A program made the position numbers and the translations under genes. Below, in pieces: positions 5,378 to 45,128 of a stretch of 64,000 nt of DNA; position 1 is the first letter of the stretch; every line of letters begins with the position of its first letter. The notes under the pieces were generated by a model. The model was not told the DNA's origin. It saw nothing but the letters and a program-made list of their open reading frames with translations, and did not search any database. Source of the stretch: Alphaproteobacteria bacterium (GTDB lineage Bacteria > Pseudomonadota > Alphaproteobacteria > JBFXJJ01); assembly GCA_050175015.1 (NCBI GenBank), contig JBFXJJ010000001.1:96001-160000 (forward strand). The letters are read 5' to 3'.

Positions 5378-5378
5378 T

Positions 5379-10262: not shown

Positions 10263-10278
10263 TATGACTCCATTGAAT

Positions 10279-11757: not shown

Positions 11758-11780
11758 ATTAACAACCCTTGTATTATTAA

Positions 11781-11818: not shown

Positions 11819-11833
11819 AACAAACAACTATCT

Positions 11834-13365: not shown

Positions 13366-13371
13366 GAGATA

Positions 13372-14913
13372 ATGAGTATCACTAGAAAAAATAATTTAAA
13401 TGATGAAAGAGGAGCCTTTGCTGTAATTTTAGCTGTTGCAATTATTCCATTAATGTTTGTTGTCGGTTCAGCAATAGACCTTTCCCGTGCATATGTTGCC
13501 AAATCACGTCTTTCTTTTGCTCTCGATGCCGCAGGTTTAGCTGTTGGTGCGGCTAGCACCCAAGATGAAGATGAGCTTAATGAAATTATGCAGGCTTATT
13601 TTAATAAAAATTATCCCAGTTCAGAAATTGGAGACGAAGTTGATTTAGATATGACTTTTACCAATGGAGTTGTAACTCTCAGCGCAACAAGAAGAGTTCC
13701 AACAACATTTATGGCTCTTGCTAATTATGATTATTTAGATGTTTATGCTTCAACTCAAATAATCCGTGAAACTAAAGGATTAGAAGTAGCATTGGTGCTA
13801 GATAACACAGGTTCCATGTCATCAAACGGCAAAATAGTGGCGTTAAGAACTGCCGCAACATCATTGATTAATATTTTATTTGGCAACCAAGAAGATCCTG
13901 AGAACCTTAAAGTCTCACTCGTTCCTTATGTTACAACAGTTAATATCGGTAAAAACAATAAAGCGTATGTTAATTTTTCTGGAACGTCCTTTACAGGAGA
14001 CGATGCGATCGATTTAGCAAATACGGGAACAACTTGGAAAGGCTGTGTTAAAGCAAGATCATATCCTTTTAATGTGGAAAATGAAGGGGGAGGTTTATGG
14101 CCGGCCTATATCTGGCCTAAGGAGCCGCGTTATAGAGGAACAAGCGGAACATTAACCAGCAGCTGTGCTAATGTTTCCAATTCTTCAGGAACAGCGTGGA
14201 GCTATATTAAAGAACCTAATATCATTAGCAATAGTACTGTATCATCTTCTGGTCCCAACAAAGATTGTCCTCGTGCGCTTGTCCCGCTTTCTAGTGACAA
14301 ACAGCTTTTGCTTGATGAAATTGCGGCAATGTCTCCTTGGGGAAGTAACGGAACCATGTCCCATATGGGAATTTTCTGGGGAACAGAAACTCTTACCCCC
14401 GAGGCTCCTTTTGATGAAGGCGTCGATTGGGGAGATGAAGAATGGAATAAAGCTCTCATTATTATGACCGATGGTATTAACACGCTTACTCAACAGCATT
14501 ATCAATATAATACCAGTGAAACATCATCATCACATTATTGCCGTAATCCTACAACTCAGCGCCCAGTTGCATCTTCATGGCCCAATGGCGGTCCTTGGAC
14601 TCATTTTAGCGGAGAAGGATACCCCGTTGATGATGGACTTTTGCCTCTCGGTTCAGGAACAAAAGCTCAAAAATATAATAATATGATGACATTATTAAAT
14701 ACATATACGGCAGAGACCTGCGAATATGCTAAGTCAAAGGGCATTATTGTTTATACAATTACATTTCAATTAACAAATACAACCATTCAAGATTTATATC
14801 GGAATTGCGCAACTGATCCTAGTAAATATTTCAACTCTCCAACCAGCGAATCTTTACAGCAAACTTTTAGGGCAATAGGGGCAGAATTAAGCAATCTTCG
14901 TGTTAGTAGATAA
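13372..14913 (+). CDS. tadG: TadG-family vWA-domain pilus adhesin
   Basis: ERGAFAVILA pilin-like N-terminus; MIDAS DNTGSM; MTDG; C-terminal 'LSNLRVSR'. Confidence 0.88.
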   Translation: MSITRKNNLNDERGAFAVILAVAIIPLMFVVGSAIDLSRAYVAKSRLSFALDAAGLAVGAASTQDEDELNEIMQAYFNKNYPSSEIGDEVDLDMTFTNGVVTLSATRRVPTTFMALANYDYLDVYASTQIIRETKGLEVALVLDNTGSMSSNGKIVALRTAATSLINILFGNQEDPENLKVSLVPYVTTVNIGKNNKAYVNFSGTSFTGDDAIDLANTGTTWKGCVKARSYPFNVENEGGGLWPAYIWPKEPRYRGTSGTLTSSCANVSNSSGTAWSYIKEPNIISNSTVSSSGPNKDCPRALVPLSSDKQLLLDEIAAMSPWGSNGTMSHMGIFWGTETLTPEAPFDEGVDWGDEEWNKALIIMTDGINTLTQQHYQYNTSETSSSHYCRNPTTQRPVASSWPNGGPWTHFSGEGYPVDDGLLPLGSGTKAQKYNNMMTLLNTYTAETCEYAKSKGIIVYTITFQLTNTTIQDLYRNCATDPSKYFNSPTSESLQQTFRAIGAELSNLRVSR

Positions 14914-18784: not shown

Positions 18785-18789
18785 ATTTA

Positions 18790-18836
18790 ATTGGTGGGCG
18801 ATGGGGGACTCGAACCCACGGCCCGCTGATTAAGAG
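18790..18836 (-). repeat. att site: displaced 3' half of tRNA-Lys (47-bp direct repeat)
   Basis: ATTGGTGGGCGATGGGGGACTCGAACCCACGGCCCGCTGATTAAGAG, identical to 45051-45097; identity ends at the anticodon loop. Confidence 0.97.
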
Positions 18837-22400: not shown

Positions 22401-23121
22401 AATATATTTTAGGTGAATATTCTGATGTAAAATTATCTCTTAGCCAACCTATCCACTGCAAAAAATTTGGGTCATTTGCAGAAAACCCAATAAGACACAG
22501 AGTGTTTTCTAATAAAGATTGCTGAACCGTATTAACAAAGGGTTCGAATTTTTTAGGATATTTTCTATAATCTTCTTCTGTGATAATAAAAGGTCGTATT
22601 GTAGGAAAACTTCCATGTAGTTTAATAATCCTTGGGTTATCGGCATTTTGCAGATCTTCTGTCGTCGTTACTATATCGTATTTAACTTTATTCCATGGCT
22701 TTACCTTACAAGCCCTTTCTAACAGTGTGTCATAATTTGTGGTAAAAACATCAACCCATGGCAGTTCCAAAAGTTTTGAATGCAATAGGGATGGTTCGTA
22801 TTTCAAGTCGGGGATATTGTCTGTTAGAAATTGATTTAAAACTGTTCTACCAAAAACAGCTTCTACTTCTTCCGCAAGCTTTAATACATCTAAATATCTG
22901 GATTCTTCTGGTTTGTATCCATAGAGTTTTTCATAAAACTTATCGCCTAAAGCATCCCAGCTTGGAAAAGCATTTAGATCGTCTGATGCAGCATTTTTAC
23001 TAAAACCAGCTCCAATCATTACCGCAGCATGGCCCGAATAAAGCCGATCTGCTATTTCATCAATAAGTACGTTTGTCTCATCATAAAATATGCTATCCAT
23101 ATTATCCATCGCAACACTCAA
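19408..23121 (-). CDS. Large SIR2-domain protein, defence-associated sirtuin (Dsr1-like)
   Basis: N-terminal SIR2 motifs GAGFS, TTNYD, KLHGS, IGFSANDPNF; ~950-aa helical C-terminal region; 1237 aa; island context. Confidence 0.8.
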   Translation of the reverse strand: MSVAMDNMDSIFYDETNVLIDEIADRLYSGHAAVMIGAGFSKNAASDDLNAFPSWDALGDKFYEKLYGYKPEESRYLDVLKLAEEVEAVFGRTVLNQFLTDNIPDLKYEPSLLHSKLLELPWVDVFTTNYDTLLERACKVKPWNKVKYDIVTTTEDLQNADNPRIIKLHGSFPTIRPFIITEEDYRKYPKKFEPFVNTVQQSLLENTLCLIGFSANDPNFLQWIGWLRDNFTSEYSPKIYLVTASRPTHSQYKLFEKRNIVVVDLSQQVRTNTNVSNFHYKALEYFLKKLKYKKPYNYNWPKEYHQKEELKELIPLWKKDRENYPGWCILPHNLREKLLTFTELHRFISSDEKKFPIPTDIKFMYELVWRLERCLYPLHHYEAEFIKKLLKKYLPFETLLNHKKEVVVCYDDKKYESLPWDDIKNAWIYLSFSLLRYFREKGKHNEWKKIKNKIEKIEGYLSAEQRARFYYECVLQDLFTFIVPDIEKTLNKWKKDETLPFWEAKRAGVLAELGRIEEAQSILEQSLNTIRLKINLKPTKDDLSLVSQEAYILWSFRKVSFSVRAKQGNYGDKNSSNIENHWNQFKIFGIDPEIENLLFSQALTREATIYREKIEKTDFDIGVIKSSYHWDIRGDKDYILAKQFLRFIEEIGSPFKVPMVNFAIREGNGVCKRIYKYNPYLAFIVQLRCGDRKNIDDFFSRSFFNQFDQKQTDLQIEFILDILEKNQTEIRDGNTYDKPNFGILFAQIGSDILSRLCSKASLSKKDQLLYFLQTIYLSNQKNKYAGIKNLVRRLIESYNPYELWKRIPKLLSFPILDNLSDMAKDEFMNPFYFVTFDKDLLKDWARSEFAEIQINELIKYTDSGNANGRAWAIISLAKLHEYGLLTEEQNNNFAKALWSKVDNNGLPENMDFYKFVLLTLPSPKETFVNDLVKNYVLKLPLPTTNGNKSYTGTRGKIEFCDELIGLGDKQIWSIKDIKGILDRLVEWWDADKEELRNEENKKIMLFGSRYDEFKARFCALIRVLFYMIIPNLDQIVDAKTKRTLSKLIKELEIYELHNVQLKVAALNIFPEWKEEIVTEITNNIASNDEETININLHAGLVLLKKLNIDFSKSKLEGLISFVAQAVCWRRKLALSSSMHFVTEAIKIRPDLLNESAQRLVLQGLEYLAKETSPQNDTTVKEEADKLLIRQNSARLAYALYSYFLEREQDISEEINVWKQICQDTNEFSEVRNQWPRY

Positions 23122-27328: not shown

Positions 27329-27727
27329 CTACTTAGGATTTTTTTCACGCCACCTTCTAAACGTATCAATATCATCTCTTACTAGTTTTAAGCACAGCAT
27401 TATAACCATAGCATCATCAGCAAGACCAATAATAGGAATAAAATCAGGAATAAGGTCAATTGGGCTAAAAACGTAAAGCAAGGCAACAACCATTGCCGCA
27501 ATTGAACTCCAAGGGATTTCTGTATAAGTATTGTCCCAGTAACAAGATACCATATCAAACATAGTCTTAACATCATCAATATATTCACTTAATAAAGATG
27601 AATCTCCGACTTTGTTAATTACTTCGTCTTTGTTTTTTAGAGCTTTCTCTAAATCTTTATTAGAAATAGATGCGGCTTGCTCTTTAATAAAGCTTTCGTT
27701 GATTTGTTCTTTATAATTTTGATTCAT
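27329..27727 (-). CDS. YkvA/DUF1232 family membrane protein
   Basis: LLYVFSPIDLIPDFIPIIGLADD; start at ATG 27727 after a GAGGA RBS. Confidence 0.88.
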   Translation of the reverse strand: MNQNYKEQINESFIKEQAASISNKDLEKALKNKDEVINKVGDSSLLSEYIDDVKTMFDMVSCYWDNTYTEIPWSSIAAMVVALLYVFSPIDLIPDFIPIIGLADDAMVIMLCLKLVRDDIDTFRRWREKNPK

Positions 27728-27782
27728 TTTAATATCCTCTTGTTTGATAAAACCAAAAGACCACCAGATATAACGATCTGGC

Positions 27783-27880
27783 GGTCGGGGTGTTAGCAAC
27801 CTATCCAAGAGAAAAGGCGATCAGATTTTGGTTACAATTCAAAGATTGTAACTTGGACATATACTGATACCACCCCGACC
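27783..27880 (-). ncRNA. Structured RNA resembling phage C4/CI antisense RNAs
   Basis: Closing stem GGTCGGGGTG/CACCCCGACC; inner stems ATCAG/CTGAT and GTTACAAT/ATTGTAAC; segment CTCTTGGATAGGTTGCTA complementary to upstream and downstream sites. Confidence 0.55.
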
Positions 27881-28399: not shown

Positions 28400-29251
28400 C
28401 TAACTGCCGATTATAGCAGCCTCAAATTTTTCTCTGTTTTTAATAATTACAGGAGCTTCTTTTGGGTTATCTAAAGCTTCTGCAATATCTAAACGCAGAC
28501 GTTTGCGGAAATAGTACAACAACGCACGGCGTATATTTATTCGAGAGCAGCCATCTTCCATATTGTAATCATGAGCAATAATTTTTTGCTGATTATCTCC
28601 TAACTTAGGGTTGGGAATTAGAACAACTTCAAAAGTATCATTCCACTCACTATCCTGCTGTCTTGAAACATTGGTTGCTTCTGGGTTGCGAACATCAAGG
28701 GTTCGAGAAAGAATAAAATCCTTAAATTTTTTATCGTCATGACAAAATGCTCGTGTGTGCCACCGAAGCCCATCGCTACCAAAAGCATGTGGTGTAATTC
28801 GTCGCCAAATTGGATCTGGTTTTTGATCGTTCATTGATTGATACAAGATTTCAATTGATGCTTGTTCTCTTATAGTATTTATGATTCTCTGTAAAATAGA
28901 CGAATCAATACGACGATAAGGAATAGGCATTACATCAACATAAGGAAAAACAGAAGCCTTGTTGTCTTGTTCCAAGTATAGTTGTCTTAGGTATTCGTCG
29001 GAATCTGGAGTGAAAAATTTCGGCTTAAATTCTTTTGAAGGAAAATATTTTTTTACACTCTTGTCATAACAGATGTTTTCCTGAGCCAATTCTTGATATT
29101 GGCTTAGATCTTTCGATGCCTGAGGCACTGATATATTAAAAAATTTTATAAGATCAGAGCGGTTTATTCCACCCTCCCAAAATAAACAAAACTCAATAAA
29201 TTCAAGACGTTGTTCAACACTCCAGCGAACATGTGATTTTTTGGCGACCAT
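28400..29251 (-). CDS. capW: WYL-domain transcriptional repressor, CapW/BrxR family
   Basis: 'EQRLEFIEFCLFWEGGINRSDLIKFFNISVPQASKDL' wHTH; 'RRITPHAF..DGLRWHTRAFC..FKDFILSR'; divergent from CBASS. Confidence 0.88.
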   Translation of the reverse strand: MVAKKSHVRWSVEQRLEFIEFCLFWEGGINRSDLIKFFNISVPQASKDLSQYQELAQENICYDKSVKKYFPSKEFKPKFFTPDSDEYLRQLYLEQDNKASVFPYVDVMPIPYRRIDSSILQRIINTIREQASIEILYQSMNDQKPDPIWRRITPHAFGSDGLRWHTRAFCHDDKKFKDFILSRTLDVRNPEATNVSRQQDSEWNDTFEVVLIPNPKLGDNQQKIIAHDYNMEDGCSRINIRRALLYYFRKRLRLDIAEALDNPKEAPVIIKNREKFEAAIIGS

Positions 29252-29264
29252 AAAACCTCCAATG

Positions 29265-29332
29265 AGTATATAAACTATATTGACATATAAACTATATTGA
29301 CATATAAACTATTTTCATATAGTTTATATACT
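29265..29332. promoter_or_regulatory. CBASS/capW divergent promoter with palindromic operator and 17-bp tandem duplication
   Basis: ATATAAACTAT-N6-ATAGTTTATAT at 29302-29329; TTGACA(29297)-17bp-TAGTTT; unit ATATAAACTATATTGAC present twice. Confidence 0.75.
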
Positions 29333-29371
29333 AATAAAGACAATCAGGTCAATAGCAAATTGGAGGCAGAT

Positions 29372-29605
29372 ATGTCAAAAAATGATCGATATGTAGTAAA
29401 CCACCCAGATGGTTGGGCGGTAAAAAAGTCTGGAGCGACGCGTGCAAGTGGTGTCTACGAAACACAAAAAGAAGCCATTGGTGCTGCTAAAGAAATTGTG
29501 GGGCACGCGGGTGGCGGAGAAGTCCGTATTCAGGGAACCAATGGAAAATGGCGTGATTCTGACACGGTATCTCCTGGTAACGATCCGCATCCACCCAAGG
29601 GTTAA
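29372..29605 (+). CDS. DUF2188 family small protein
   Basis: 'VV..DGWAVKKSGATRASGVYETQKEAI..A..I......V.I.G.NG..RD.D...GNDP.PPKG'; GGAGG RBS. Confidence 0.85.
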   Translation: MSKNDRYVVNHPDGWAVKKSGATRASGVYETQKEAIGAAKEIVGHAGGGEVRIQGTNGKWRDSDTVSPGNDPHPPKG

Positions 29606-29629
29606 TATCATAAAAAACGGAAAAGCATC

Positions 29630-29947
29630 ATGAACATTAAAGGTCTTAAGGAGTTTCAGAAGAAGCTTGAGCAATTGGAAGAAAATGCAAAATCTCTCGA
29701 TGGCCAACACAATATTGCTATTGCAGAACTGCTGACCCCAGAGTTTGTTTGCCATCACACGCAGTTTTCGTCTGTTGATGAGCTATTTGAAAACAGTGGT
29801 TTTCAGATTGAAAACTCAGATGATTTTGCCGCAATACCTGATAAAGAGTGGGATACATATATTCGTTCGGTTTCAAGTTTCAGTGATTGGCATACTATGC
29901 TTTCAAAAGCATCGGAAGAATGGGCCAAGAAAAAGCTTGGCCTTTAG
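29630..29947 (+). CDS. Hypothetical 105-aa protein in the CBASS operon
   Basis: Co-oriented with short spacers between DUF2188 and capV. Confidence 0.75.
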   Translation: MNIKGLKEFQKKLEQLEENAKSLDGQHNIAIAELLTPEFVCHHTQFSSVDELFENSGFQIENSDDFAAIPDKEWDTYIRSVSSFSDWHTMLSKASEEWAKKKLGL

Positions 29948-29975
29948 AAATTATCCTTAAAAAAGAGATACGGAT

Positions 29976-31091
29976 ATGAGTAACAAACCTTTTCGAGTTT
30001 TAAGTTTGGATGGTGGTGGAATGAGGGGAATATATTCTGCCATTTACCTAAAAAAGCTTGCAGATTCTTGCGCAAAAAACAAGGGATTTAAGACACTTGA
30101 TATCGGCAAAGCATTTGATTTGATTGTCGGCACAAGCACCGGTGGCATCTTGGCATGTGCGCTTGCGTTTGGAGCGCCCCTTTCTAAGGTTATAGAACTG
30201 TATAGGAATGAAGGGCCTCGAATTTTTCAATCTCAACTTCCATCAGGTATTAACGTAGAACTTGGCAGGCAGCTCTTAATGCGCCCAATAGAATTAAGAA
30301 GTGGCGCGCAAGCATTAAAAAGAGCTTTGAGCCACGTTTTCTTAGGAGAAACAATGGAAAGCCTTTATGAGCGCAGGAAAATTGCTTTGGCTATTCCTTC
30401 CGTCAATATGCATACACATAGTGCGTGGGTTTTCAAAACCCCACATCTTTTAGGCAACAACGGAAGAGATAACAAATATACCCTTGTTGATGTTTGTTTG
30501 GCCACTAGTGCCGCACCGATATTCAGAAGTTTAGAAGCCATAGAAGAACCGGGTGGTTATGGAACATATCATGTCTTTACAGATGGTGGCTTGTGGGCAA
30601 ACAACCCTGTTTTAGTTGCTTTACTCGAAGCTTTGCGAATGACGGAACATGGACGTTCAATAGAAATTTTTTCTTTAGGAACATGCCCTAAACCTGTCGG
30701 TGAAAATCTGTCAAAAGAAGAAGTCAACAGAGGACTTCTTGAGTGGAAATTCGGAGGAAAAATTTCCGAGCTTTCAATAGACGCTCAGGAATTTGCATAC
30801 GATCATATGGCAAGAATGTTCGCCGGAGCAATTAATCGTCCCTGCAATATATTACGCTTTCCTACAGCAAATATTCCTCCTGATGATATAAAGTTTTTAA
30901 ACTTGGATGAAACCTCCAAAGAAGGATTAGAGGCGTTAACGCGTTTGGCTCTTCGTGATGCAGATATTGCAAATTCAAAAATTCAGGATCCAAAGAGTGA
31001 AGAAGGCGCAATGATCAAACGGTTGTTTGATGACATGCCAAAGTCAGAAAAGCCAAAGCCTTACGGCCTTGCGGTGGAATGTAATAGCTAA
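29976..31091 (+). CDS. capV: CBASS patatin-like phospholipase effector (CapV-like)
   Basis: DGGGMRG, GTSTG (GxSxG), SAAP, DGG; adjacent to the CD-NTase. Confidence 0.9.
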   Translation: MSNKPFRVLSLDGGGMRGIYSAIYLKKLADSCAKNKGFKTLDIGKAFDLIVGTSTGGILACALAFGAPLSKVIELYRNEGPRIFQSQLPSGINVELGRQLLMRPIELRSGAQALKRALSHVFLGETMESLYERRKIALAIPSVNMHTHSAWVFKTPHLLGNNGRDNKYTLVDVCLATSAAPIFRSLEAIEEPGGYGTYHVFTDGGLWANNPVLVALLEALRMTEHGRSIEIFSLGTCPKPVGENLSKEEVNRGLLEWKFGGKISELSIDAQEFAYDHMARMFAGAINRPCNILRFPTANIPPDDIKFLNLDETSKEGLEALTRLALRDADIANSKIQDPKSEEGAMIKRLFDDMPKSEKPKPYGLAVECNS

Positions 31092-31164
31092 AAATAATCC
31101 TATTTTCATAGGTCTTCTTGGGGGCCTATTAACAGCCTGTTTACTAGATGAAAAGGAATGCAAG

Positions 31165-32220
31165 ATGCTTGATTGTTCAAAAGAAATAAGAAAATTTCAT
31201 GACGAAGAGGTTACTCTTCAGTCTGCCCAACAGAATGAAATGAGAGAAAGACGAAATTCTAATCGTGATCGGCTAAAGAGTGGACTTAAAAACAATGGGA
31301 AACCAAGTCCTATATATTTACGCTCACAAGGCTCTTACGCCATGCGTACAATGGTTCAAGATGCAGAAAACGATTACGATATTGATGATGGTATGTATTT
31401 CAAACAGGAAGACCTAAAAACAAGTCAAGGCAATGACATGTCCGCATTATCCGTAAGGAACATGATTTGTGATATCATTCAGGATGAACGATTTAATAAC
31501 AAACCTGAAGTGAAGAACAATTGTGTAAGAGTTTACTATAATGACGGCTCTCATATTGATGTTCCTGCGTACCGTATAATAATAGAAAAGGATTTTTTGG
31601 GCAATGAAACAGAGAACTTTGAACTAGCCAGTTCCGATTGGAAAGCAAGCGATCCAAGAAAGGTGACAGACTGGCTAAGAGATACCGCAAAAGATAAAAG
31701 CCCAGATGATGATCCAGATCAATTCCGCAGAATCGTCCGCTTGTTAAAAGCTTTTTCAAAAAGTCGCTCAGGTTGGAAAACAGACAAAGGTGCAAGTGGC
31801 TTTACTATTACTAAGCTTACACAAGAAGTTTTTGTGGCTGCTTCAGGACGTGATGATGAATCTCTACATAAAACAATGAAAGCTATTAAACAACGCTTAG
31901 ACTTAAATTTAAGCGTTTACCATCCTGTTATCCATGGAGAAAAGCTCGCAAAAAATGATGATGTTAGAACACGTCGTTTTAAAGAACGGTTAGAACAAAA
32001 TCTGGAACATTTGAATGTTATGGATAATCCCGAATGCACGCCAGAACAAGCACTAAAGGCCTGGGGAAAAGTATTTAACAATACGGATTTCTTTGATGCC
32101 CGAATCCAAGAACGGAAAAGTGCCAACAACGCAATAGGTAGCATGGCAATTATTAAAGAAGCTGAACGGTTGAACCTTAACTCGCCTGTTAATAAACAGG
32201 GGAACAATGAATATGCCTGA
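31165..32220 (+). CDS. CBASS cGAS/DncV-like nucleotidyltransferase (CD-NTase)
   Basis: SQGSYAMRT...DYDIDDG; K..CVRVYY...HIDVPAY; SDPR; start at ATG 31165 after AAGGA. Confidence 0.92.
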   Translation: MLDCSKEIRKFHDEEVTLQSAQQNEMRERRNSNRDRLKSGLKNNGKPSPIYLRSQGSYAMRTMVQDAENDYDIDDGMYFKQEDLKTSQGNDMSALSVRNMICDIIQDERFNNKPEVKNNCVRVYYNDGSHIDVPAYRIIIEKDFLGNETENFELASSDWKASDPRKVTDWLRDTAKDKSPDDDPDQFRRIVRLLKAFSKSRSGWKTDKGASGFTITKLTQEVFVAASGRDDESLHKTMKAIKQRLDLNLSVYHPVIHGEKLAKNDDVRTRRFKERLEQNLEHLNVMDNPECTPEQALKAWGKVFNNTDFFDARIQERKSANNAIGSMAIIKEAERLNLNSPVNKQGNNEYA

Positions 32221-34051
32221 AGATGACTTGTTTTGGATCGAATTGCACAGGAAAGCAGCCAATGAAATAGAAGAATACTTTATGGCGGCGGGCTGGCATT
32301 TTATCCCTCTGAAAGATGAAGAGATAAATAAAAGCTATTCTGGGCGAAAAATTTCCTTCGGTTGGAGTTTGTTGTTTTCTTTTCCTTGTGGAACGAAAAA
32401 ACGCCTGCATTTGCTTATTGATAAAAACTTTCCTTATTCCCTTCCCCGGGTAGCATTAGAAGACAAAAGCTTTTATATGAAATGGCCTCATGTTGAAGAA
32501 GATGGCATTCTTTGTCTTGGATCAAAAAATAGCAACGCTATAGATAATAGCAATATTGCATGCATGGTTTTCGGTGCGTTTAGATCAGCTTATGAACTAA
32601 TAGAAGCTTGTCTTGACGAAAGCTGTTTTTCTGACTTTGACACAGAATTTAATTCATATTGGTGCAGAGAAGAGCACGACTCAGAGGCCTTTTTATCCCT
32701 ATTGGATGATTCCAGAAAAACGCGAAAAGTTATGTTCGCCAACGTAAAAGATAGAGTTCTTGTTTGCGACGATAAAAAACATGGACAACGCTGGATAAAC
32801 AACTTTTTTACCTTCAAACCAGAAGAGAAAGTTACCTTTAAAAAAGGAGTTTTTCTATGGCTATCTAAACCGTTAAGACCACCATATCCCAAGTCCGGAA
32901 AAGAGGTGCTTTCTTTAATAAAAGAGTGTGCGGAACAAAGCGATGCTAAAATTATAGGAGAAACTTTAAAAGATATTCCCAATACGTTTCCAATTTTTTT
33001 TGGCTTTGAAACAAAAAACGGCCCTGCATTAGGCTGTTTTTATACCGAGAGACCAAAAACAGAAAAGCTTCCTAATGGGAAAGAGATTAATCCAATAACA
33101 AACGGATTTCGTCCTGGCAAAATTCCTTTTAAAGTCATAACCACACGATATTTATCAAAGGCTGATATAAAACCAAGAAAAGTAGATAGAGTTGATCATG
33201 CTTGGTTGCATGGCAGGGCTGTAGATGAGACTTCTAATTCTATTAGAAACAAATCTGTTGCTATAATAGGGCTAGGGGCTGTTGGAAGTTTTGTCGCGGC
33301 AATACTTGTCAAAGCTGGTGTAGGAAACATAGTTCTAATTGACGACGACAAACTGTCATGGGTGAACATAGGCCGTCATGTCTTGGGTGCGCAACATGTT
33401 GGCAAATACAAGAGCCGTGCCCTATCCGAAGATTTAAGAAGAAACCATCCAAATCTCAATGTGATTTATGATGATCCATCAATTATTCAGAGTGTGTTGC
33501 TCGAAAGAATAGATGTCTTGCAAAAGTGCGATATAATAATAGACCTTACAGCCGATTGGATAGCAAAAAGTATATTGAATGAGTTTTGGCATAGAGGGAT
33601 GCTAAGCGCCCCCCTTGTTTTTGGCTGGACAGAACGCTTTGGGGTAGCAGGCCATGCTATTGCACTAATAAACAAAAATCATGGCTGTTATCAATGTGGA
33701 TGCAATTTTGATGGCGGTTTATTAAATCCCTTAACAAACTGGCCAGAGGATATGCCTGTTTTTCAAGAACCTGCCTGCGGAACTGTTTTTCAGCCTTATG
33801 GGCCTACGGAACAGGGGTTTTCTAATTCACTGATCAGCAATCTTATTATTGATGTTCTAATGAAAAACATAGAGCAGTCCGTTCATAGAGTTTGGGTTGG
33901 CCCAAAGAAAAAAATTAACCATTATCGTGGGTGTATTTCTGATGATTGGAAGGAAATAACCAAACATATAGAAGAGCATGGTGGTATTGTTTGCAGGAAT
34001 TGGGAAAGACGAAAAGATTGTCCAGTCTGCGGAAAAGGGTACACGCGATGA
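32207..34051 (+). CDS. cap2: CBASS Cap2 (E2-E1 fusion)
   Basis: E2 'WPHVEEDGILCL'; ThiF 'IIGLGAVGS', 'NIGRH'; EPACG; CYQC and CPVC. Confidence 0.9.
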   Translation: MNMPEDDLFWIELHRKAANEIEEYFMAAGWHFIPLKDEEINKSYSGRKISFGWSLLFSFPCGTKKRLHLLIDKNFPYSLPRVALEDKSFYMKWPHVEEDGILCLGSKNSNAIDNSNIACMVFGAFRSAYELIEACLDESCFSDFDTEFNSYWCREEHDSEAFLSLLDDSRKTRKVMFANVKDRVLVCDDKKHGQRWINNFFTFKPEEKVTFKKGVFLWLSKPLRPPYPKSGKEVLSLIKECAEQSDAKIIGETLKDIPNTFPIFFGFETKNGPALGCFYTERPKTEKLPNGKEINPITNGFRPGKIPFKVITTRYLSKADIKPRKVDRVDHAWLHGRAVDETSNSIRNKSVAIIGLGAVGSFVAAILVKAGVGNIVLIDDDKLSWVNIGRHVLGAQHVGKYKSRALSEDLRRNHPNLNVIYDDPSIIQSVLLERIDVLQKCDIIIDLTADWIAKSILNEFWHRGMLSAPLVFGWTERFGVAGHAIALINKNHGCYQCGCNFDGGLLNPLTNWPEDMPVFQEPACGTVFQPYGPTEQGFSNSLISNLIIDVLMKNIEQSVHRVWVGPKKKINHYRGCISDDWKEITKHIEEHGGIVCRNWERRKDCPVCGKGYTR

Positions 34052-34515
34052 TGATTTTTTGTTCTGATCAGTTGAGGCAAAAGGTTGTCTTTACAAACCG
34101 TGTAGTCAAACTGTTCAAAAAACACCAACAAACAAATGCAAAAAGCAAGGAAGCAGGGGGACAGCTTTTTGCAAGCTTTGAAAAAGATTCTGTAATCATA
34201 ATGGATGCTTCAGAGCCAAATAGACAAGATATAAGGGGTAAATATTTTTTCCATCCAAACAGAGATAGGGAAAGACAAGACATCAACATTTTTTTTAAGA
34301 AAGGCCTTCATTATGTAGGTGATTGGCACACTCATTTTGAACCAGCTCCTAATCCATCGGATAAAGACAAAGAAACTATTCGGGATTGCTTTATAAAATC
34401 AGACCATAAATTAGATAATTTTATTTTGGTTGTAGTTGGAACAGCCTGTTTCCCTGAAGGATTATCTGTCTCTATTCATAACGACAAAACATATTTGTTT
34501 TTACACAATGTTTAA
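34048..34515 (+). CDS. cap3: CBASS Cap3 JAB/MPN isopeptidase
   Basis: EAGG...DWHTHFEPAPNPSDKD (HxH..S..D); ATGA overlap with the cap2 stop. Confidence 0.9.
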   Translation: MMIFCSDQLRQKVVFTNRVVKLFKKHQQTNAKSKEAGGQLFASFEKDSVIIMDASEPNRQDIRGKYFFHPNRDRERQDINIFFKKGLHYVGDWHTHFEPAPNPSDKDKETIRDCFIKSDHKLDNFILVVVGTACFPEGLSVSIHNDKTYLFLHNV

Positions 34516-36175: not shown

Positions 36176-37345
36176 ATGGCAAAAATTAAGCTTAATGCCA
36201 ACGTAGTTGCAAAAATTAAACCAACAGGAGAAAGAAATGATAAGGAACGTTATTATTGTTCTGAAAACATAGGCCTTATGCTTGAAGTAAGAGCAACAGG
36301 AGTAAAAACATTTTATGTCAATTATCAATTACCTGATGGAACAAAACGTCAATTCAAGATAGGTAGATATCCTGAAATTTCTTTTGAGAATGCCAAGAAA
36401 AAAACTTTGGAAATTAGGGGCTTAGCTATGACAGGAGTTGACCCCACAAATTCAAGACAAAAGTCAAGGGGCACTCCATTGTTTTGTGAATTTGCGGATA
36501 CATATCTTAAACATGTTAAGGATCAAAAATCATCTTGGAAAGACGATGAATGTATTATTAGAATTTGGCTTAATCCTAATTTTGGCAGAAAGAAACTAGA
36601 CCAGATTGATACTGTTGATATTAGCCGTCTTCACAATACTATGAAACAAAGTCGTTCATCTGCTACCGCAAATAGAACGTTATCTATAATCAAGCATATG
36701 TTTAATGTTGCCATTAGCTGGGGAGAGATTAACAAAAATCCAGCAAAGGGCATTAAAAAATTTAGAGAAAACCAAAAAGAAAGATATTTGTCTGTTGAAG
36801 AAATCAAAAGACTCATGGCTGTTCTTAATGAGGAAAAAAATCACTCCATTGCATCTCTTGTTATGTTGCTATTATTTACAGGTGCCAGAAAGTCTGAAGC
36901 CCTGAAAATGAAATGGTCTGATGTTGATTTTAAAAATGCAATCTGGACAGTTCCCCAAGAGAACTCAAAATCAAGAAAAGTGAGACATATTCCTTTATCC
37001 AATATTGCGATTAGGATTTTGCAAAACATTGAGCGGGTAGAGGATTCTCCTTATGTTTTTGTTGGTAGATATGACATTTACAAACCAATGAACAGTCCTA
37101 AAAAAACTTGGTATAAGATTAGAGAACTAGCAGGATTACCAGATGTTAGGCTTCATGATTTAAGACATAGTTATGCTTCTTTGCTGGTCTCTAATGGACG
37201 TTCCTTATATGAGGTTCAAAAGATATTAGGACACAGCTCTCCTAACATGACTCAAAGATACAGTCATTTTAGCAAGGATACTCTAATAACAGCGGTTAAT
37301 TCTGTTGGCAATTCGTTAAACGACATTTTAGTTATAGAAGCCTGA
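36176..37345 (+). CDS. Tyrosine recombinase/integrase with N-terminal arm-binding domain (P4-like)
   Basis: N-domain 'GL.L.V..TG.KTF...Y......IGRYPEIS'; catalytic TGAR, K, HDLRH, LGH, TQRY all intact. Confidence 0.95.
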   Translation: MAKIKLNANVVAKIKPTGERNDKERYYCSENIGLMLEVRATGVKTFYVNYQLPDGTKRQFKIGRYPEISFENAKKKTLEIRGLAMTGVDPTNSRQKSRGTPLFCEFADTYLKHVKDQKSSWKDDECIIRIWLNPNFGRKKLDQIDTVDISRLHNTMKQSRSSATANRTLSIIKHMFNVAISWGEINKNPAKGIKKFRENQKERYLSVEEIKRLMAVLNEEKNHSIASLVMLLLFTGARKSEALKMKWSDVDFKNAIWTVPQENSKSRKVRHIPLSNIAIRILQNIERVEDSPYVFVGRYDIYKPMNSPKKTWYKIRELAGLPDVRLHDLRHSYASLLVSNGRSLYEVQKILGHSSPNMTQRYSHFSKDTLITAVNSVGNSLNDILVIEA

Positions 37346-37354
37346 GTTTAGTTT

Positions 37355-37401
37355 ATGAGACAAGAATTGGTATTATTTATCAGTTCTTGTTTCTTTTTTT
37401 T
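37355..37401 (+). terminator. Terminator-like hairpin after int
   Basis: ACAAGAATTG...CAGTTCTTGT followed by a T tract. Confidence 0.5.
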
Positions 37402-37461
37402 GTAATTAATCAAAAAGTGTAGTGCATCAATTTGATGTTTTTAACTTTCAGGAGAAATGCA

Positions 37462-37687
37462 ATGGGAATAACGATAAAGAGAGAGACTCAACCAGAAAAA
37501 CTTTTAACACCTAAAGAAGCAGGAGAGTATCTGCAAGTGGCTCCAGCTACTTTAGAAAAATGGCGTATGAAAAAAAATTGGTCCTAAATATGCTAGGTTT
37601 GCCAATAGAACAGTTAGGTATAGCAAAGTTGATTTAGAAAACTTTGTTTTTGAAAATAAAATTATGCCAACCGCCCAAAAAAATTAA
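37462..37687 (+). pseudogene. Excisionase-like HTH protein frameshifted in an A8 run
   Basis: MGITIKRETQPEKLLTPKEAGEYLQVAPATLEKWRMKK, then stop after NWS; removing one A from 37570-37577 gives ...IGPKYARFANRTVRYSKVDLENF; AGGAGA RBS. Confidence 0.8.
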
Positions 37688-37891
37688 GGCTCTTATTTTT
37701 TTTATTTTCGGATTTTTAATGGTTTTAGCAATAATAAACGCTACCCTAAACATATTGCCCTTATCCAAAACGGATAAGGGCTTTGTGTTATTCTTTTTAC
37801 TTTTAGCTAAATCATTAAAAACACATAGAAATCTACAGTTTTCCACATTATGACCTGTCAGAATTATTGTCTTTCTAAACACTAATTTCTG

Positions 37892-37926
37892 TAACGTCCA
37901 ATTTTGTCGCACATAGGTGTCATCTT
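37892..37926 (+). promoter_or_regulatory. Putative DriD-type box plus -10 upstream of dnaQ
   Basis: TAACGTC-N7-GTCGCAC, then ATAGGTGT-CATCTT. Confidence 0.55.
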
Positions 37927-37961
37927 TATAAACAACAATTAGTTTATAAGGAGGTGTTGCT

Positions 37962-38858
37962 ATGCGAGAGATAGTTTTAGATGTTGAAACAACTGGTTTG
38001 TCTGCAAAAAATGGGAATAGAATTGTTGAGATAGCAGGAATAGAGGTTATAAATTATGTTCCAACAGGAAAATATTTTCAGGCTTATGTGAATCCAGAAA
38101 GAGAAAGCGATGCTGACGCTTTTAAAGTTCATAATTTAACTACAGAGTTTTTATCACAGAAGCCTTTGTTTAAAGAAATTGCTTCTGATTTTTTAGAGTT
38201 TATCAAAGACAGTCCGTTAGTTATTCATAATGCCCCTTTTGATATGAGTTTTATTCAAAACGAGCTTAAAATCGCAGGCTTGCCAATTCTTCAAAATAAA
38301 ATAGTTGATACATTAGAAATTGCTAGGAAGGCGTTTCCTGGAATTTCTAATTCATTAGATAGCCTATGCAAAAGGTTTAACATTGATATTTCCGAAAGAG
38401 AAATTCATGCCGCTCTTTTAGATGTTGAGTTGTTGGCAAAAGTCTATTTAGAGCTGATGGGCGGCTCTCAAACCAAAATGACTTTTGCTGTTAATGAGGA
38501 ATGTAATGTAAAGTCAGAAAAGAAATTTTATCCCCCAAGACCTCATTTTCCAAGTGAAGATGAGTTAGATGCTCATAAAAAAATGTTTAGCGATAATTAT
38601 ATGTGGTGCTGGAAAAATGACTTAGAAAAAATGCCCTTAAAAGATTTTATGTTAAAACATAATCTTGAAAGATTCTTTCCAGCCTTTTTTAATGAAGAAT
38701 ATAAACTTTTTACTGATTTAAGTATCAAGGCTCTAGGTGATACAGGAAACGCATCAGAGGCAAGATTATTTTGCTTGCTTGAAGCATTAATTAAAAAACA
38801 TCGAATTGAAAATTTAAAAAACATACTTGATAAAATCAGAAACAAACAACCTATTTAA
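37962..38858 (+). CDS. dnaQ: DNA polymerase III epsilon (DEDDh exonuclease) with C-terminal extension
   Basis: MREIVLDVETTGL (ExoI), HNAPFD (ExoII), HAALLD (ExoIII); ~80 extra C-terminal residues. Confidence 0.88.
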   Translation: MREIVLDVETTGLSAKNGNRIVEIAGIEVINYVPTGKYFQAYVNPERESDADAFKVHNLTTEFLSQKPLFKEIASDFLEFIKDSPLVIHNAPFDMSFIQNELKIAGLPILQNKIVDTLEIARKAFPGISNSLDSLCKRFNIDISEREIHAALLDVELLAKVYLELMGGSQTKMTFAVNEECNVKSEKKFYPPRPHFPSEDELDAHKKMFSDNYMWCWKNDLEKMPLKDFMLKHNLERFFPAFFNEEYKLFTDLSIKALGDTGNASEARLFCLLEALIKKHRIENLKNILDKIRNKQPI

Positions 38859-38877
38859 GATAGAAACACAAACAACA

Positions 38878-38912
38878 AAACGTCCAAATTTATCGTGTAT
38901 ATATGACATTTA
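38878..38912 (+). promoter_or_regulatory. Putative DriD-type box upstream of the UDG-like gene
   Basis: AAACGTC-CAAATTT-ATCGTGT...TGACATTTA; parallels the dnaQ box. Confidence 0.5.
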
Positions 38913-38988
38913 TTTGTTGTAAAAACTTATTTTAACTTGCCTAATAAAAACTAACTTAAAGTTTAAAAACAAATTGGAGGAGAAAATT

Positions 38989-39702
38989 ATGCAAAACCAG
39001 AAATTAGAAGATATTCAAGCCAACATTTATGACTTTCTTGATAAAGCAAATAAGGTTCTACTGAAAGAAGACTCTCTTTTTTATGGCGGACAATATATAA
39101 CAGGTTGCCTTGAAAATCCTAAAATTCTTTTTATTGGTATTAATCCAGGTTTTGCAGCAAACGATGAATGGGGAGACCGTCCACATACTTTTAATCGGAA
39201 AACTTTTTCTCAAAAAGATTGTAAATATATTGAAGAAGCAAAACGAAAAAACTCTTTGGCTCTTAAAGTTGTTGAATATCTTCTAAATAACGAAAATGAT
39301 TTACTAAAAAAATGTGCTGAAACAAGTTTTAAATCTTTCTTTGCTACATCTAATGAAAACGGTATTGATGGCTCATTAAAAAATCTATCCTCCTCTGGAT
39401 TGCAAGTAGAACATCATAAAATTATGAACGATGCAATCAAAACAATTATAGAAGAAATTTCTCCTGAAAATATTGTATTTATTGGAAAAACAGTCTTTGA
39501 CAATTTTGTTTGTACCTTTGGTTGTAAAAAAACAGAAATAAAAGAAATGACTTCACTAAGCGGAAAAACAAAACGTATTTTTTATCAAAAAACGTTTTTT
39601 AACGGAATACCAACTCACGGGGTTTTACATTTATCTGGAGCTCAACCCTCTACTAAAATTTTGGACGAGCTAAAAAATATTTTTAAATCTGTAATTAGCT
39701 AA
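38989..39702 (+). CDS. Uracil-DNA-glycosylase-superfamily-like protein
   Basis: 'PKILFIGINPG' motif 1, 'PENIVFIGK', 'VLHLSG' motif 2; GGAGGAG RBS. Confidence 0.6.
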   Translation: MQNQKLEDIQANIYDFLDKANKVLLKEDSLFYGGQYITGCLENPKILFIGINPGFAANDEWGDRPHTFNRKTFSQKDCKYIEEAKRKNSLALKVVEYLLNNENDLLKKCAETSFKSFFATSNENGIDGSLKNLSSSGLQVEHHKIMNDAIKTIIEEISPENIVFIGKTVFDNFVCTFGCKKTEIKEMTSLSGKTKRIFYQKTFFNGIPTHGVLHLSGAQPSTKILDELKNIFKSVIS

Positions 39703-39719
39703 ACTTTTTTAAACGCCAT

Positions 39720-39750
39720 AAAAGAGCCTGCTTTAAAACAGGTTCTTTTT
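39720..39750. terminator. Bidirectional terminator
   Basis: AAAAGAGCCTG...CAGGTTCTTTT between convergent genes. Confidence 0.6.
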
Positions 39751-40113
39751 TTATGTTCTATAATGGCTATCGGTTTTGATGATATAGTTTTGTCTTAAAA
39801 GACCAAATTCGTTGATAATTTTTTGCATGATAGATTTTTTTAAAAGTTTTCTATCCGCATAGATATAAAACCGTTTTTCTGGCACATGATAAGAAACACG
39901 ACCTCTTGGCACTTCATCATATTCAAAATCATGAAAAACAGAAGAAAATCCTGTTTTAAGCTCCATCTCTTCCCAAAAATCCACATGCCCTTTATCGTGA
40001 ATTAAAAAAACACCATAAGAAACAGCATTATCAAGCAAAGTCTTATCACAAATAAGCTCCAAAGACTTAAACCAGAAAATGCCAACATAAATATTTTTAT
40101 TTGTATCTGTCAT
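39751..40113 (-). CDS. Hypothetical protein with GIFW, H..W, EY..PRGRV and D.HY motifs
   Basis: 120-aa ORF with enzyme-like polar motifs. Confidence 0.7.
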   Translation of the reverse strand: MTDTNKNIYVGIFWFKSLELICDKTLLDNAVSYGVFLIHDKGHVDFWEEMELKTGFSSVFHDFEYDEVPRGRVSYHVPEKRFYIYADRKLLKKSIMQKIINEFGLLRQNYIIKTDSHYRT

Positions 40114-40133
40114 ATATTAATAATAACAGCCAA

Positions 40134-40167
40134 TAACGTCACAAATGGACATGTTAGAAAACATAAT
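40134..40167 (+). promoter_or_regulatory. Putative DriD-type box plus -10 upstream of the MBL gene
   Basis: TAACGTC-N7-GACATGT, then CATAAT at 40162. Confidence 0.45.
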
Positions 40168-40234
40168 CTAAAAACATTTTAATGCTTTCATAATTGTCAT
40201 AATATTTAAGTTTATCTTTTAAAGGAGTTTTCTT

Positions 40235-41458
40235 ATGCTGAAAAAAAAGTTTTATGCCTTTGTAGATAACGTTGATATATTAAGTAAAAGCTCTAAAGGA
40301 AGAGTTTATATAGAATTCGACTGTATTAACGCAGAGGCTTATAAGATTGGTAATTTTAATTCCAAGCCAGATGCTTATGCCGTTTTAAGAATTGTTACAA
40401 CCAAAAAAAGACTACTTGATATAACATCAGAAAAAACTCTTCCTAAAACCTCTAGTTGGTGGGAAATAGGCGTTTCTTCTAATAAAAAGTGGTTGCCGAC
40501 TTGGTTTTCAAAATTGCAAGAAGATGGTTTTAGCTTTCCAATTAAATGTTATACGCATGGTTTAAAGCGAATTAAAGATGATGAAGATTACCCTAAAAGA
40601 AAAAGTTTAAGTGCGGCGGCGACAAAAAAGGTTATGTTAAGCGATGTTACTCAAGATTTTTGTATTGATAATTTAAGCAGAGAAAAATGTAATGCCTGCA
40701 AAATTTTATCAAAAATTAAACCGATTGACAAAATTATTATATATGATGTTGGACAAGCTAATTTTATTGCCCTTTTAAATAAAGATAATCAAAAAGAGCT
40801 TTATGTTGATGTTGGTTTCCCTCTCCCATTTAATTATAATACGATAAACAAAGCTATTACTGCAAAAGTTTCAAAATTACCTCAAGCAACGATTTTATTA
40901 ACTCATTGGGATTATGACCATATGAGTGCTGTTTTTAAAAATAACAATTTAAGAGAAAGTAACTGGGTTGTTCCTAATCAAAAAATAGGACCTAGCAAAT
41001 TTAAACTAGCAAAAGAGCTAGCAGATAGAGGAAAGCTCCACATATGGGACAATAGTAACAGTAACTGCCGAAAATATTTTAATTTTGGAGACATAAAACT
41101 AGCAACTGGAGATGATATAAATAATTCTGGTTTAATTCTAAATGTAAGGTTTAAGGATTTTTATAATGTACTAATGTCTGGAGATACAGATTATAGTAAT
41201 TGTCCTTTTAATCTCACTTTTGATGCAATTGTTGCTACTCATCATGGAGGAAGTTTTAATGGAAGATGTCCTTCGCCTAAAGGAGGATTAGGAATAAAAC
41301 ATAACTTTATAGATAAGGTTTATTTATCTTACGGCAAGGGTAATCGTTACAAACACCCTTCAAATGCAGCAACCAATCAATATATACGCAACGGTTGGAA
41401 AATAGAAAGAACAGCGAAAGATGTTTCTAAAAAAAGAGGTGATATTTCGATATCTTAA
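40235..41458 (+). CDS. MBL-fold hydrolase (ComEC/Rec2-like) with unknown N-terminal domain
   Basis: DVGQ, THWDYDH (HxDxDH), NNSG, SGD, HHGG, SYG.GNRYKHP; no TM segments or signal peptide. Confidence 0.82.
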   Translation: MLKKKFYAFVDNVDILSKSSKGRVYIEFDCINAEAYKIGNFNSKPDAYAVLRIVTTKKRLLDITSEKTLPKTSSWWEIGVSSNKKWLPTWFSKLQEDGFSFPIKCYTHGLKRIKDDEDYPKRKSLSAAATKKVMLSDVTQDFCIDNLSREKCNACKILSKIKPIDKIIIYDVGQANFIALLNKDNQKELYVDVGFPLPFNYNTINKAITAKVSKLPQATILLTHWDYDHMSAVFKNNNLRESNWVVPNQKIGPSKFKLAKELADRGKLHIWDNSNSNCRKYFNFGDIKLATGDDINNSGLILNVRFKDFYNVLMSGDTDYSNCPFNLTFDAIVATHHGGSFNGRCPSPKGGLGIKHNFIDKVYLSYGKGNRYKHPSNAATNQYIRNGWKIERTAKDVSKKRGDISIS

Positions 41459-41537
41459 TTGATATAAATGTTTTGCTCGCACATATTTGTTATAATAATG
41501 TTTTAATTTTAAAGATATTTTTTAAAAGAGGCTCTAT

Positions 41538-42485
41538 ATGCGGTATGAAAAGTCTGAAAACATTTCAAGATTAGCAATAAAAATGCAGTCTAATGCGGAA
41601 GGTCTTTCATTGGCAGATATTCAAAATGAATTTGGGGTTAGCAGACGAACCGCAGAACGTATGCGAGATGCCGTTTTACGGCTATATCCACAATACGAAG
41701 AAATTATAGATGGCAGAAGTAAACGCTGGAGAATTCCCTATGGCAGAGTAAATAATCCTGCCCTAACGGTTGATGAATTATCATCAATTGCCAAAGCGAT
41801 AAAACTAGCAGAGGAAATTGGACGAGAAGATATTTTTAAACATCTAAAATCAGCCCAGGATAAAATCAAAGCAACCATATCGCCTGATGCAATCAGAAAA
41901 GCAGAGCCAGACATTGAAGCAATTATCGAGGCTGAAGGTTATGCTATGCGTCCTGAGCCAAAAGAAAAAATCGATACTCATATTTTGGAAACATTGGTTT
42001 ATGCTATAAAAGCCTGTCGTAAAGTTAAAGTTGAATATCTTGGAGCAAATTCAGGTAAAATAAGCTTTCAAGTAATCTATCCTTATGGATTTACCTATGG
42101 AAGTCGAAAACGTTTGGTTCTTTATAATGAATATGCCGAAGATTTTTATACTTACCGTTTAGCTAACATAAAAAAAATCAAACTGCTTGATGAATGTTTT
42201 AAAAAAGACGCCAATTTTTCTTTAAAAAAATATGTTGAACAGTCTTTCGGAGCCTTTCAAGAACCTCCTCAAAAAGTTGTTTGGAGAGCCTCTCCCGAAA
42301 TTGCAGATGATGCCAAAAATTGGCTGTTTCACCCAACACAAACCATAGAAGAACAAGCTGACGGCTCTTTACTAATCACCTTTATCGCAGGTGGTTTTTT
42401 AGAAATGGCTTGGCATCTCTATACTTGGGACGGCAAAATGGAAGTCTTGGAACCAAAAGTTTTAAGAGATATGATTGATTTTTAA
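41538..42485 (+). CDS. driD: HTH-WYL-WCX transcription factor, DriD-like
   Basis: 'MRYEK...SNAEGLSL...GVSRRTAERMRDAV..YPQ', 'PDIEA', 'W.FHPTQ...DGSLLITF.AGG..EMAWHLYTW' match my recollection of Caulobacter DriD. Confidence 0.8.
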   Translation: MRYEKSENISRLAIKMQSNAEGLSLADIQNEFGVSRRTAERMRDAVLRLYPQYEEIIDGRSKRWRIPYGRVNNPALTVDELSSIAKAIKLAEEIGREDIFKHLKSAQDKIKATISPDAIRKAEPDIEAIIEAEGYAMRPEPKEKIDTHILETLVYAIKACRKVKVEYLGANSGKISFQVIYPYGFTYGSRKRLVLYNEYAEDFYTYRLANIKKIKLLDECFKKDANFSLKKYVEQSFGAFQEPPQKVVWRASPEIADDAKNWLFHPTQTIEEQADGSLLITFIAGGFLEMAWHLYTWDGKMEVLEPKVLRDMIDF

Positions 42486-42603
42486 ATGTTTAATCAGATA
42501 ATACTTTTTGCTTTCAAGAAAAAATATTTATACCTCTACACTTTAAATATCATATGACATATTAAACGTCTTATTATAAATAATATACAATTTTTTAGTT
42601 TCA

Positions 42604-42636
42604 CCCCTCACGATTGACTGTGAGGGGAGTTTTTTA
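42604..42636. terminator. Terminator between convergent driD and ykvA-like genes
   Basis: CCCCTCAC-N8-GTGAGGGG followed by a T run. Confidence 0.6.
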
Positions 42637-43008
42637 ATCTTTTTCTAACCATTTTTTATATTCTTTCAGTTCATCGCTCACCATTTTTAGGCAGACTGAT
42701 ATTACTGTAATATCATCTGTATAGCCAAAAATAGGGATAAAATCTGGTATCACATCAATAGGCATTAATAAGTAAATTAAGGCAAAAACTATTACACTTA
42801 AATTATTCCAATTAATGTTTTTATAAGTTCCGTCATAGTAATCTTTTGCTAGGTTAAACATTATTTTAACATCACTAGAAACAGAAGATAATATGCCATT
42901 TAGCATAGAAAACAATCGTTCTTCCTTCGCTATTAATTTATGTAAATCTTTTTTATTAACATTATTAGATTGCTTTGTTACAAGCTTTTTAGTTTTTTCA
43001 AAATTCAT
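42634..43008 (-). CDS. YkvA/DUF1232 family membrane protein (second paralogue)
   Basis: LIYLLMPIDVIPDFIPIFGYTDD. Confidence 0.88.
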   Translation of the reverse strand: MNFEKTKKLVTKQSNNVNKKDLHKLIAKEERLFSMLNGILSSVSSDVKIMFNLAKDYYDGTYKNINWNNLSVIVFALIYLLMPIDVIPDFIPIFGYTDDITVISVCLKMVSDELKEYKKWLEKD

Positions 43009-45014: not shown

Positions 45015-45050
45015 AAAAAGCCTTGAAACCGTTGAGTTTCAAGGCTTTTT
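45015..45050 (-). terminator. Island-supplied terminator for tRNA-Lys
   Basis: Perfect 15-bp inverted repeat AAAAAGCCTTGAAAC/GTTTCAAGGCTTTTT directly after the CCA. Confidence 0.85.
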
Positions 45051-45052
45051 AT

Positions 45053-45128
<76 letters not shown>

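Follow-up and report, generated by a model that had tools for sequence, protein, structure and literature searches.

A DriD orthologue on a tRNA-Lys defence island and its likely local regulon in an alphaproteobacterium

The genome of an alphaproteobacterium (2.53 Mb, 35% GC; GenBank assembly GCA_050175015.1), whose nearest sampled relatives share only its class, carries a genomic island on which a gene for a WYL-domain protein resembling DriD closes a short block of genes. These are a second dnaQ, a uracil-DNA glycosylase (UDG)-like gene, a small gene of a family named PRGRV and a gene for a metallo-beta-lactamase (MBL)-fold hydrolase. Which of them, if any, answer to this regulator, and to what end? 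We addressed this in a window of 64,000 nucleotides (nt), i.e. positions 96,001 to 160,000 of contig JBFXJJ010000001.1 (C1:96001-160000). A first-pass annotation of the same DNA had proposed DriD-type boxes upstream of dnaQ, the UDG-like gene and the MBL gene. We find that a working DriD-type regulon is likely here, as judged from the sequence, and that its probable members are dnaQ, the UDG-like gene and the PRGRV gene.

Three DriD-type boxes and the genes they face

The boxes at 37892, 38878 and 40134 read letter for letter as the first-pass annotation had written them (Table 1). Its pattern matches the window three times, where shuffled sequence predicts 0.02 matches, and the whole genome holds no others. 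Because that pattern is post hoc, fitted to the three sites, an independent model of box plus promoter was built from other genomes. The model started from 13 seed sites at DriD loci and grew by iteration to 115 sites, spread over 56 of 80 loci, with no window site used. Five of the seeds lie upstream of PRGRV homologues in other genomes, so the score of box 3 is partly homology; counts at the training loci are circular, and only a set of 40 loci was held out. By this model box 1 is the best site in the genome, box 3 (minus strand) ranks fifth and box 2 falls between ranks 11 and 15, in agreement with the pattern search. The rough probability of 3 of the top 15 genome sites falling near a driD gene is about 1e-4. 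A search for box, spacer and TG-n-YA together, also post hoc, returns exactly boxes 1 and 2 on the plus strand and box 3 on the minus strand. Within the core CGxC-N7-GxCG, boxes 1 and 3 hold all four of G2, C4, G12 and C14.

That the boxes are chance matches in AT-rich intergenic DNA is extremely improbable, above all for boxes 1 and 3, even with a pattern fitted to three sites and a weak box 2, given the model ranks, their concentration near driD and the behavior of the held-out loci. The latter came from 45 further loci, of which 3 overlapped the training set and 2 lacked DriD (L182 was reached via PRGRV); a single-protein search for DriD loci gave nothing and an alignment-based search was used. 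In the 40 loci the model finds 46 sites of at least 17 bits, with at least one site in 29 loci and at least two in 11, while 19 control stretches from the same genomes have none. We conclude that, by sequence, the three boxes are real DriD-type sites.

Of the other top matches in the genome, five were inspected and all five lie inside long open reading frames (ORFs), so no host regulon is apparent and, as far as these five go, no control of the host damage genes (didA, recA, recJ, dnaG).

The promoter layout is also that of DriD. Cryo-electron microscopy shows Caulobacter DriD occupying the -35 site, a constant distance away from the -10 element, where it recruits RNA polymerase, and the gap that we counted in the Caulobacter promoter sequences printed in the same paper is 8 nt (PMC13004042; here and below, cited papers are drawn on for parts of their text). 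At the held-out loci a YAnnnT hexamer occurs at offset 8 in 24 of 47 box-only sites, at any other offset in 6 at most, and at offset 7 in a single one. In the window an 8-nt spacer containing TG separates box and hexamer in front of dnaQ, the UDG-like gene and the PRGRV gene, whereas in the MBL direction the gap measures 7 nt and lacks TG. The CAT-initial hexamer said to lie about 8 bp downstream of each box does so for dnaQ and the UDG-like gene, and follows after 7 nt in the MBL direction.

These sites could instead be operators bound by a repressor, be it DriD itself, the CapW-like WYL protein encoded elsewhere on the island or LexA. The host genome encodes LexA, a second WYL regulator stands beside the island's cyclic-oligonucleotide-based antiphage signaling system (CBASS), and box 3 overlaps a sigma70-like MBL promoter that DriD could occlude. 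We consider this very improbable, because the LexA motif, GTTC-N7-GTTC, has no match in the window, and the CapW-like protein hardly resembles DriD (27% over 49 aa). The motif moreover tracks DriD genes across genomes, and the fixed 8-nt gap in the absence of a -35 element is that of the DriD activation structures (PMC13004042).

The spacing bears equally on the target of box 3. The first-pass annotation read it as the MBL promoter and took the block for a mobile module of exonuclease, glycosylase and MBL nuclease under DriD. Box 3 is indeed pseudo-palindromic and followed by a CATAAT hexamer on the plus strand, and the nuclease gene bapE is a DriD target in Caulobacter (PMC13004042). The plus orientation, however, scores far below the minus one and has the 7-nt spacer seen in one held-out site; 80 loci of MBL homologues (768 kb) contain no DriD box, and 2 of these, apparent duplicates, carry a weak WYL match; and dnaQ, the UDG-like gene and the MBL gene accompany DriD in none of the 80 and none of the 40 other DriD loci. 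A conserved module of this kind is thus very improbable. By strand, score and spacing, box 3 is predicted to serve the PRGRV gene and not the MBL gene, which is probably a passenger without DriD activation.

The synteny of homologues points the same way, in that PRGRV recurs beside DriD with a box and the other three genes do not. A PRGRV homologue adjoins DriD at 8 of 80 loci by profile search (7 by phmmer), and in 6 of the 8 a box lies directly upstream on the same strand. These eight loci are close kin; the pairing also occurs at L175, L182, L204 and in the window, elsewhere in a quick tree of 133 rows, and the strong branches of that tree force at least seven changes in it. In two close PRGRV relatives, P0208 and P0209, the called N-terminal extensions match the in-frame reading of the window through box 3 and its hexamer, so box and hexamer keep their register. 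Since TATTAT lies so close to the start codon, the PRGRV transcript may be leaderless.

PRGRV proteins share invariant Trp, His, Arg and Asp residues. The predicted fold (pLDDT 83.9) has no Foldseek match at E 0.001, the best VIA Z being 4.6, which shows neither a new nor a known fold; Pfam, NCBIfam and PADLOC hold no family for it, and there was no usable Atlas match and no match in a 'phages' search. Homologues are found in large phage contigs (L169-L173, up to 341 kb); the one in L169 immediately follows an NAD-dependent DNA ligase-like gene. They also occur on plasmids (L178, L180 and L177), namely on 57 of Acinetobacter, on one of Roseomonas, where the neighbor is a UDG-family gene, and on one of Sphingomonas, where it is an MBL gene other than that of the island.

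Table 1. Features of the island and of its dnaQ-to-driD block (window positions)
Feature	Position	Strand	Basis or remark
Left end of island: att (attachment) repeat copied from the 3' part of tRNA-Lys	18786..18836	.	51 bp, 98% identical to 45047-45097
Tyrosine integrase	36176..37345	+	PF00589, E 5e-33
Terminator-like hairpin dividing int/xis from the dnaQ promoter	37757..37781	.	hairpin scan
DriD box 1 (37892-37912), 8-nt spacer with TG, -10 CATCTT (37921-37926)	37892..37926	+	23.7 bits, best in genome; layout as Caulobacter didA (PMC13004042)
Second DNA polymerase III epsilon (dnaQ), extra C-terminal stretch of ~85 aa	37962..38858	+	TIGR01406 above cut-off
DriD box 2, weak: A in place of the conserved G12, poor -10 hexamer	38878..38912	+	10.7 bits, genome rank 11-15
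Divergent UDG-superfamily glycosylase, GINPG motif, likely start 38989	38974..39702	+	predicted UDG fold
Bidirectional terminator-like hairpin between convergent UDG-like and PRGRV genes	39720..39749	.	hairpin scan
PRGRV-family gene, 120 aa, recurrent DriD target (predicted)	39751..40113	-	no Pfam family, no clear fold match
DriD box 3 (40154-40134), 8-nt spacer with TG, -10 TATTAT (40125-40120), 6 nt before PRGRV start	40120..40154	-	14.6 bits minus, -11.5 plus
ComEC-like MBL-fold hydrolase, own sigma70-like promoter (40138-40167) overlapping box 3	40235..41458	+	likeness to ComEC nuclease domain
driD promoter region with the right half-site alone and an extended -10, TATAAT (41491-41496)	41459..41496	+	site <3 bits; sigma70-like match 41459-41487
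DriD orthologue, wHTH-3HB-WYL-WCX; R37, E40, R41 kept, Arg at 192	41538..42485	+	homology to Caulobacter DriD
Terminator-like hairpin behind driD	42604..42627	+	hairpin scan
tRNA-Lys(CTT) (45053-45128) and att repeat; right end of island	45047..45128	-	repeat comparison

The regulator and its cargo

The DriD-like identity given to the WYL gene at first reading is upheld. Its product aligns with Caulobacter DriD over its full length (residues 1-313, E 1e-53), the WYL and WCX Pfam models both score above cut-off, DriD is the only protein among its PDB matches, and homology thus marks it as a true DriD orthologue. The residues that read box bases in the DriD crystal structure, R37, E40 and R41 (PMC10853764), are all kept. 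Upstream of driD itself, the right half-site and TATAAT hexamer noticed earlier are present, with a site score too low for a box, and the promoter is probably constitutive; in Caulobacter, where driD is transcribed from a shared divergent promoter, DriD does not activate itself (PMC13004042). Past driD (42548-42572) a pair of short words from the UDG promoter reappears, their order swapped and 9 nt between them; the model does not call this a box.

Several observations weigh against a working regulon, some of them in the pocket that binds single-stranded DNA (ssDNA). Of Y168, R176, R178, Y192, R204, R207 and Y240, the island protein keeps Y168 and R207 and has Phe for Y240; R176, R178 and R204 are changed, though these are variable within the clade. 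Position 192, aromatic in all 235 homologues, is occupied by Arg, and Y192A impaired activation by Caulobacter DriD (PMC9186387). Box 2 lacks G12 and its -10 hexamer lacks the final T, and a paired mutation including G12 abolished the response in Caulobacter (PMC10853764). PRGRV genes gathered without a DriD query come from 17 loci (in 5 genomes, 5 phage contigs and the 7 plasmids viewed out of 78), and only 2 of these have DriD close by, which speaks against an obligate link; the single other UDG-like locus viewed has housekeeping neighbors, no box and no defence island; and a PADLOC scan matched none of the island cargo genes specifically to a defence model. The absence of dnaQ, the UDG-like gene and the MBL gene from other DriD loci counts on the same side.

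The pocket changes raise the possibility that the sites are genuine and the island DriD has lost ssDNA sensing, leaving the regulon silent or run in trans by a second DriD that the host encodes on contig C44. Of 236 sequences, the island protein is the only one with Y192R; P0002, at 77% identity, still has Tyr. Contigs of sequencing run X1, perhaps the source sample, have the same letters at this position, so it is not an obvious assembly error, and the excisionase gene of the island is frameshifted. The C44 protein (locus L004, G000:C44; 39% identical to the island DriD) keeps Y192, R37, E40 and R41 and has a palindromic box upstream, and could therefore drive the island promoters in trans. 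By contrast, the island driD ORF is intact, Y167, R190, R207 and F240 are kept, and the protein departs at 8 of 57 conserved columns, as P0002 does (8) and C44 DriD nearly so (9). Arg at 192 might still contact phosphate, and DdaA, a DriD-related activator, works with one ssDNA-contact Arg replaced (PMC12392091). On balance a loss of sensing is somewhat unlikely, and we retain the working regulon as the preferred reading.

At the C44 locus the box lies between DriD and a divergent gene for an unknown protein of 362 aa. The ORF next to that gene is one which we take to resemble a DUF262 protein.

The earlier gene calls for the cargo all held. The island dnaQ scores 246.8 bits against TIGR01406 (cut-off 222.7), shares 54% of its residues with the host copy across 201 aa and has the DEDDh residues in its sequence. 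A SAM-like domain in its C-terminal extension found no support. A dnaQ-like gene beside a WYL gene in SXT integrative and conjugative elements was not confirmed either: the available part of PMC6743048 has a WYL gene in hotspot 5 and no mention of 'epsilon'. The UDG-like protein, by its structure model (pLDDT 94.9), has a UDG fold, superposing on Thermotoga maritima UDG with Z 12.1 and a root-mean-square deviation of 3.5 over 169 aligned residues. Its gene is rare, being found in 2 of 401 genomes, and the search of plasmids gave no match.

A sister element, represented in run X1 by a contig at depth 14, bears on the history of the block. Its contig joins 40160 to 41528, skipping the MBL gene, and a second joint, from 38401 to 39670, skips the UDG-like gene. 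The first joint would put driD about 16 nt from box 3, and an average of about 17 nt has been reported for DriD promoters (PMC10853764). This suggests that the MBL gene is a later insertion, and it does no more than suggest it because the content between 40160 and 41528 is marked 'between: not known'; P0209, moreover, follows the window letters a few bases beyond the joint, which also speaks against such a history.

Probable local DriD regulons in other genomes

Among 401 genomes of this class, 37 have DriD; so do 43 plasmids, of which 25 are conjugative. The homologues of the island protein are mostly alphaproteobacterial. Seven plasmid regions were viewed; annotated nucleases lie nearby in six and boxes of at least 12 bits in four. 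In four of the seven (L249, L250, L251 and L253) DriD is divergent from a TM0106 RecB-like nuclease, with weak boxes facing the nuclease in two.

Genes behind the boxes elsewhere, surveyed by scanning 43 of the downstream ORFs, include a double-AAA ATPase of about 700 aa, PcfJ-like, deiminase, SpoU, HNH and DnaB proteins and many unknown proteins. The ATPase is the commonest boxed neighbor of DriD (20 of 80 loci, e.g. L006:381-2417, L031:6782-8956 and L062:331-2385); it bears a weak PADLOC likeness to IetA and is a candidate for a conserved DriD-ATPase system. Three alphaproteobacterial loci (L216:11883-17272, L185:11929-16729 and L217) have up to six boxes in a row, one per gene, before ankyrin-like and unknown proteins, the final gene being of DUF2779 type.

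That boxes occur in the promoters of 68 of 69 DriD homologues was already published (PMC10853764). Since they cluster beside DriD in the held-out loci while dnaQ, the UDG-like gene and the MBL gene appear in none of 120, local DriD regulons are the rule and the cargo set of this island is a one-off, partly common to the sister element. None of the papers listed in literature searches outside subscription journals describes an island- or plasmid-borne local DriD regulon, a PRGRV target or the AAA ATPase neighbor.

Island setting, proposed working and meaning

The first-pass placement on an island was correct: copies of the tRNA-Lys 3' part bound 26 kb, and the regulon is confined to them. The gene order runs from DSR2 through a CapW-like WYL gene with type II CBASS, the integrase and a frameshifted excisionase to the dnaQ-to-driD block. 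DSR2 is full length at the left end (19408-23121, minus strand; PADLOC Dsr2, 1235 bits) and has no DriD box upstream. The CapW-like gene is divergent from the CBASS genes (patatin, cyclase, E1-E2 and JAB) with two small ORFs between (28400-34515), so the island holds both repressor-type and activator-type WYL proteins. The integrase sits 8 kb inside the island, away from the att sites (region 36176-37690), and the HTH_17 excisionase-like gene behind it is frameshifted in the X1 contig as well. Two DUF1232 genes (27329-27808 and 42634-43008) are 38% identical, and a Tad/Flp pilus cluster (3457-14913) lies outside the island.

The switch itself is known from Caulobacter crescentus; what appears new here is the local cargo and the island setting. 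The two regulons share an orthologous regulator, the CGxC-N7-GxCG core, the 8-nt spacer, the absent -35 element and a driD gene that is not self-activating, and Caulobacter targets include the nucleases bapE and recJ (PMC9186387, PMC10853764, PMC13004042). The island regulon differs in its tRNA-integrated setting, LexA-positive host, targets within 2.3 kb, lack of boxed host genes, other cargo and Arg192. DdaA of the Moraxellaceae likewise links DNA damage to anti-phage genes through a DriD-related WYL activator; it is a family-wide chromosomal master regulator that reads CGWCA-N5-TGWCG, whereas the sites here have N7 and are local and mobile (PMC12392091). CapW and BrxR are also WYL regulators of defence islands, as the CapW-like gene beside CBASS illustrates, but they repress an adjacent operon, while the island DriD is an activator-class protein whose several sites are dispersed (PMC13004042, PMC9186387). 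Finally, divergent UDG-fold enzymes in defence islands, such as Brig1, can excise modified phage bases (PMC11078745; bioRxiv 10.1101/2025.10.29.685425). The UDG-like protein, also of divergent UDG fold and on a defence island, finds its best structural matches among family-4 UDGs, as Brig1 does, and its putative likeness to Brig1 rests on fold and island context, not sequence. The available text of the bioRxiv paper does not contain 'WYL', and that of PMC11078745 describes no WYL activator over such a glycosylase.

In the working that we propose, a DriD dimer, activated by ssDNA as is established for Caulobacter DriD, would bind the boxes in place of a -35 element and recruit sigma70 RNA polymerase to the -10 hexamer 8 nt downstream. 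The activity could be supplied by the island DriD or by C44 DriD. The dnaQ gene would be switched on from its strong site and the UDG-like gene from its weak one, probably aided by read-through from dnaQ; PRGRV would be switched on from the other strand, its transcript and that of the UDG-like gene converging on one terminator, with the MBL gene and driD left unactivated. The regulon may then be an inducible DNA-processing adjunct to DSR2 and CBASS, firing on ssDNA from phage infection or DNA transfer, in which the glycosylase might excise modified bases as Brig1 does. As to its purpose, defence is our tentative first choice, repair or element maintenance is nearly as probable, and recent accretion with little selected function is rather unlikely.

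The locus itself is of less weight, its gene set not being conserved and its regulator possibly impaired. Rather unlikely, in our view, is a broader claim that in Alphaproteobacteria DriD serves chiefly as a plug-in ssDNA sensor that moves between genomes and forms local regulons of changing cargo. In this island it would then arm an inducible tier of defence: a Brig-like glycosylase directed at modified phage DNA, a second epsilon and PRGRV, a mobile family that would be a new effector induced by damage or phage. Work on DriD has so far treated it as a single chromosomal damage pathway, in Caulobacter, and here it is patchily spread. Because boxes cluster beside its gene, the box offers a way to list ssDNA-induced cargo for testing, with the PRGRV family and the recurrent 700-aa double-AAA ATPase as the first candidates.

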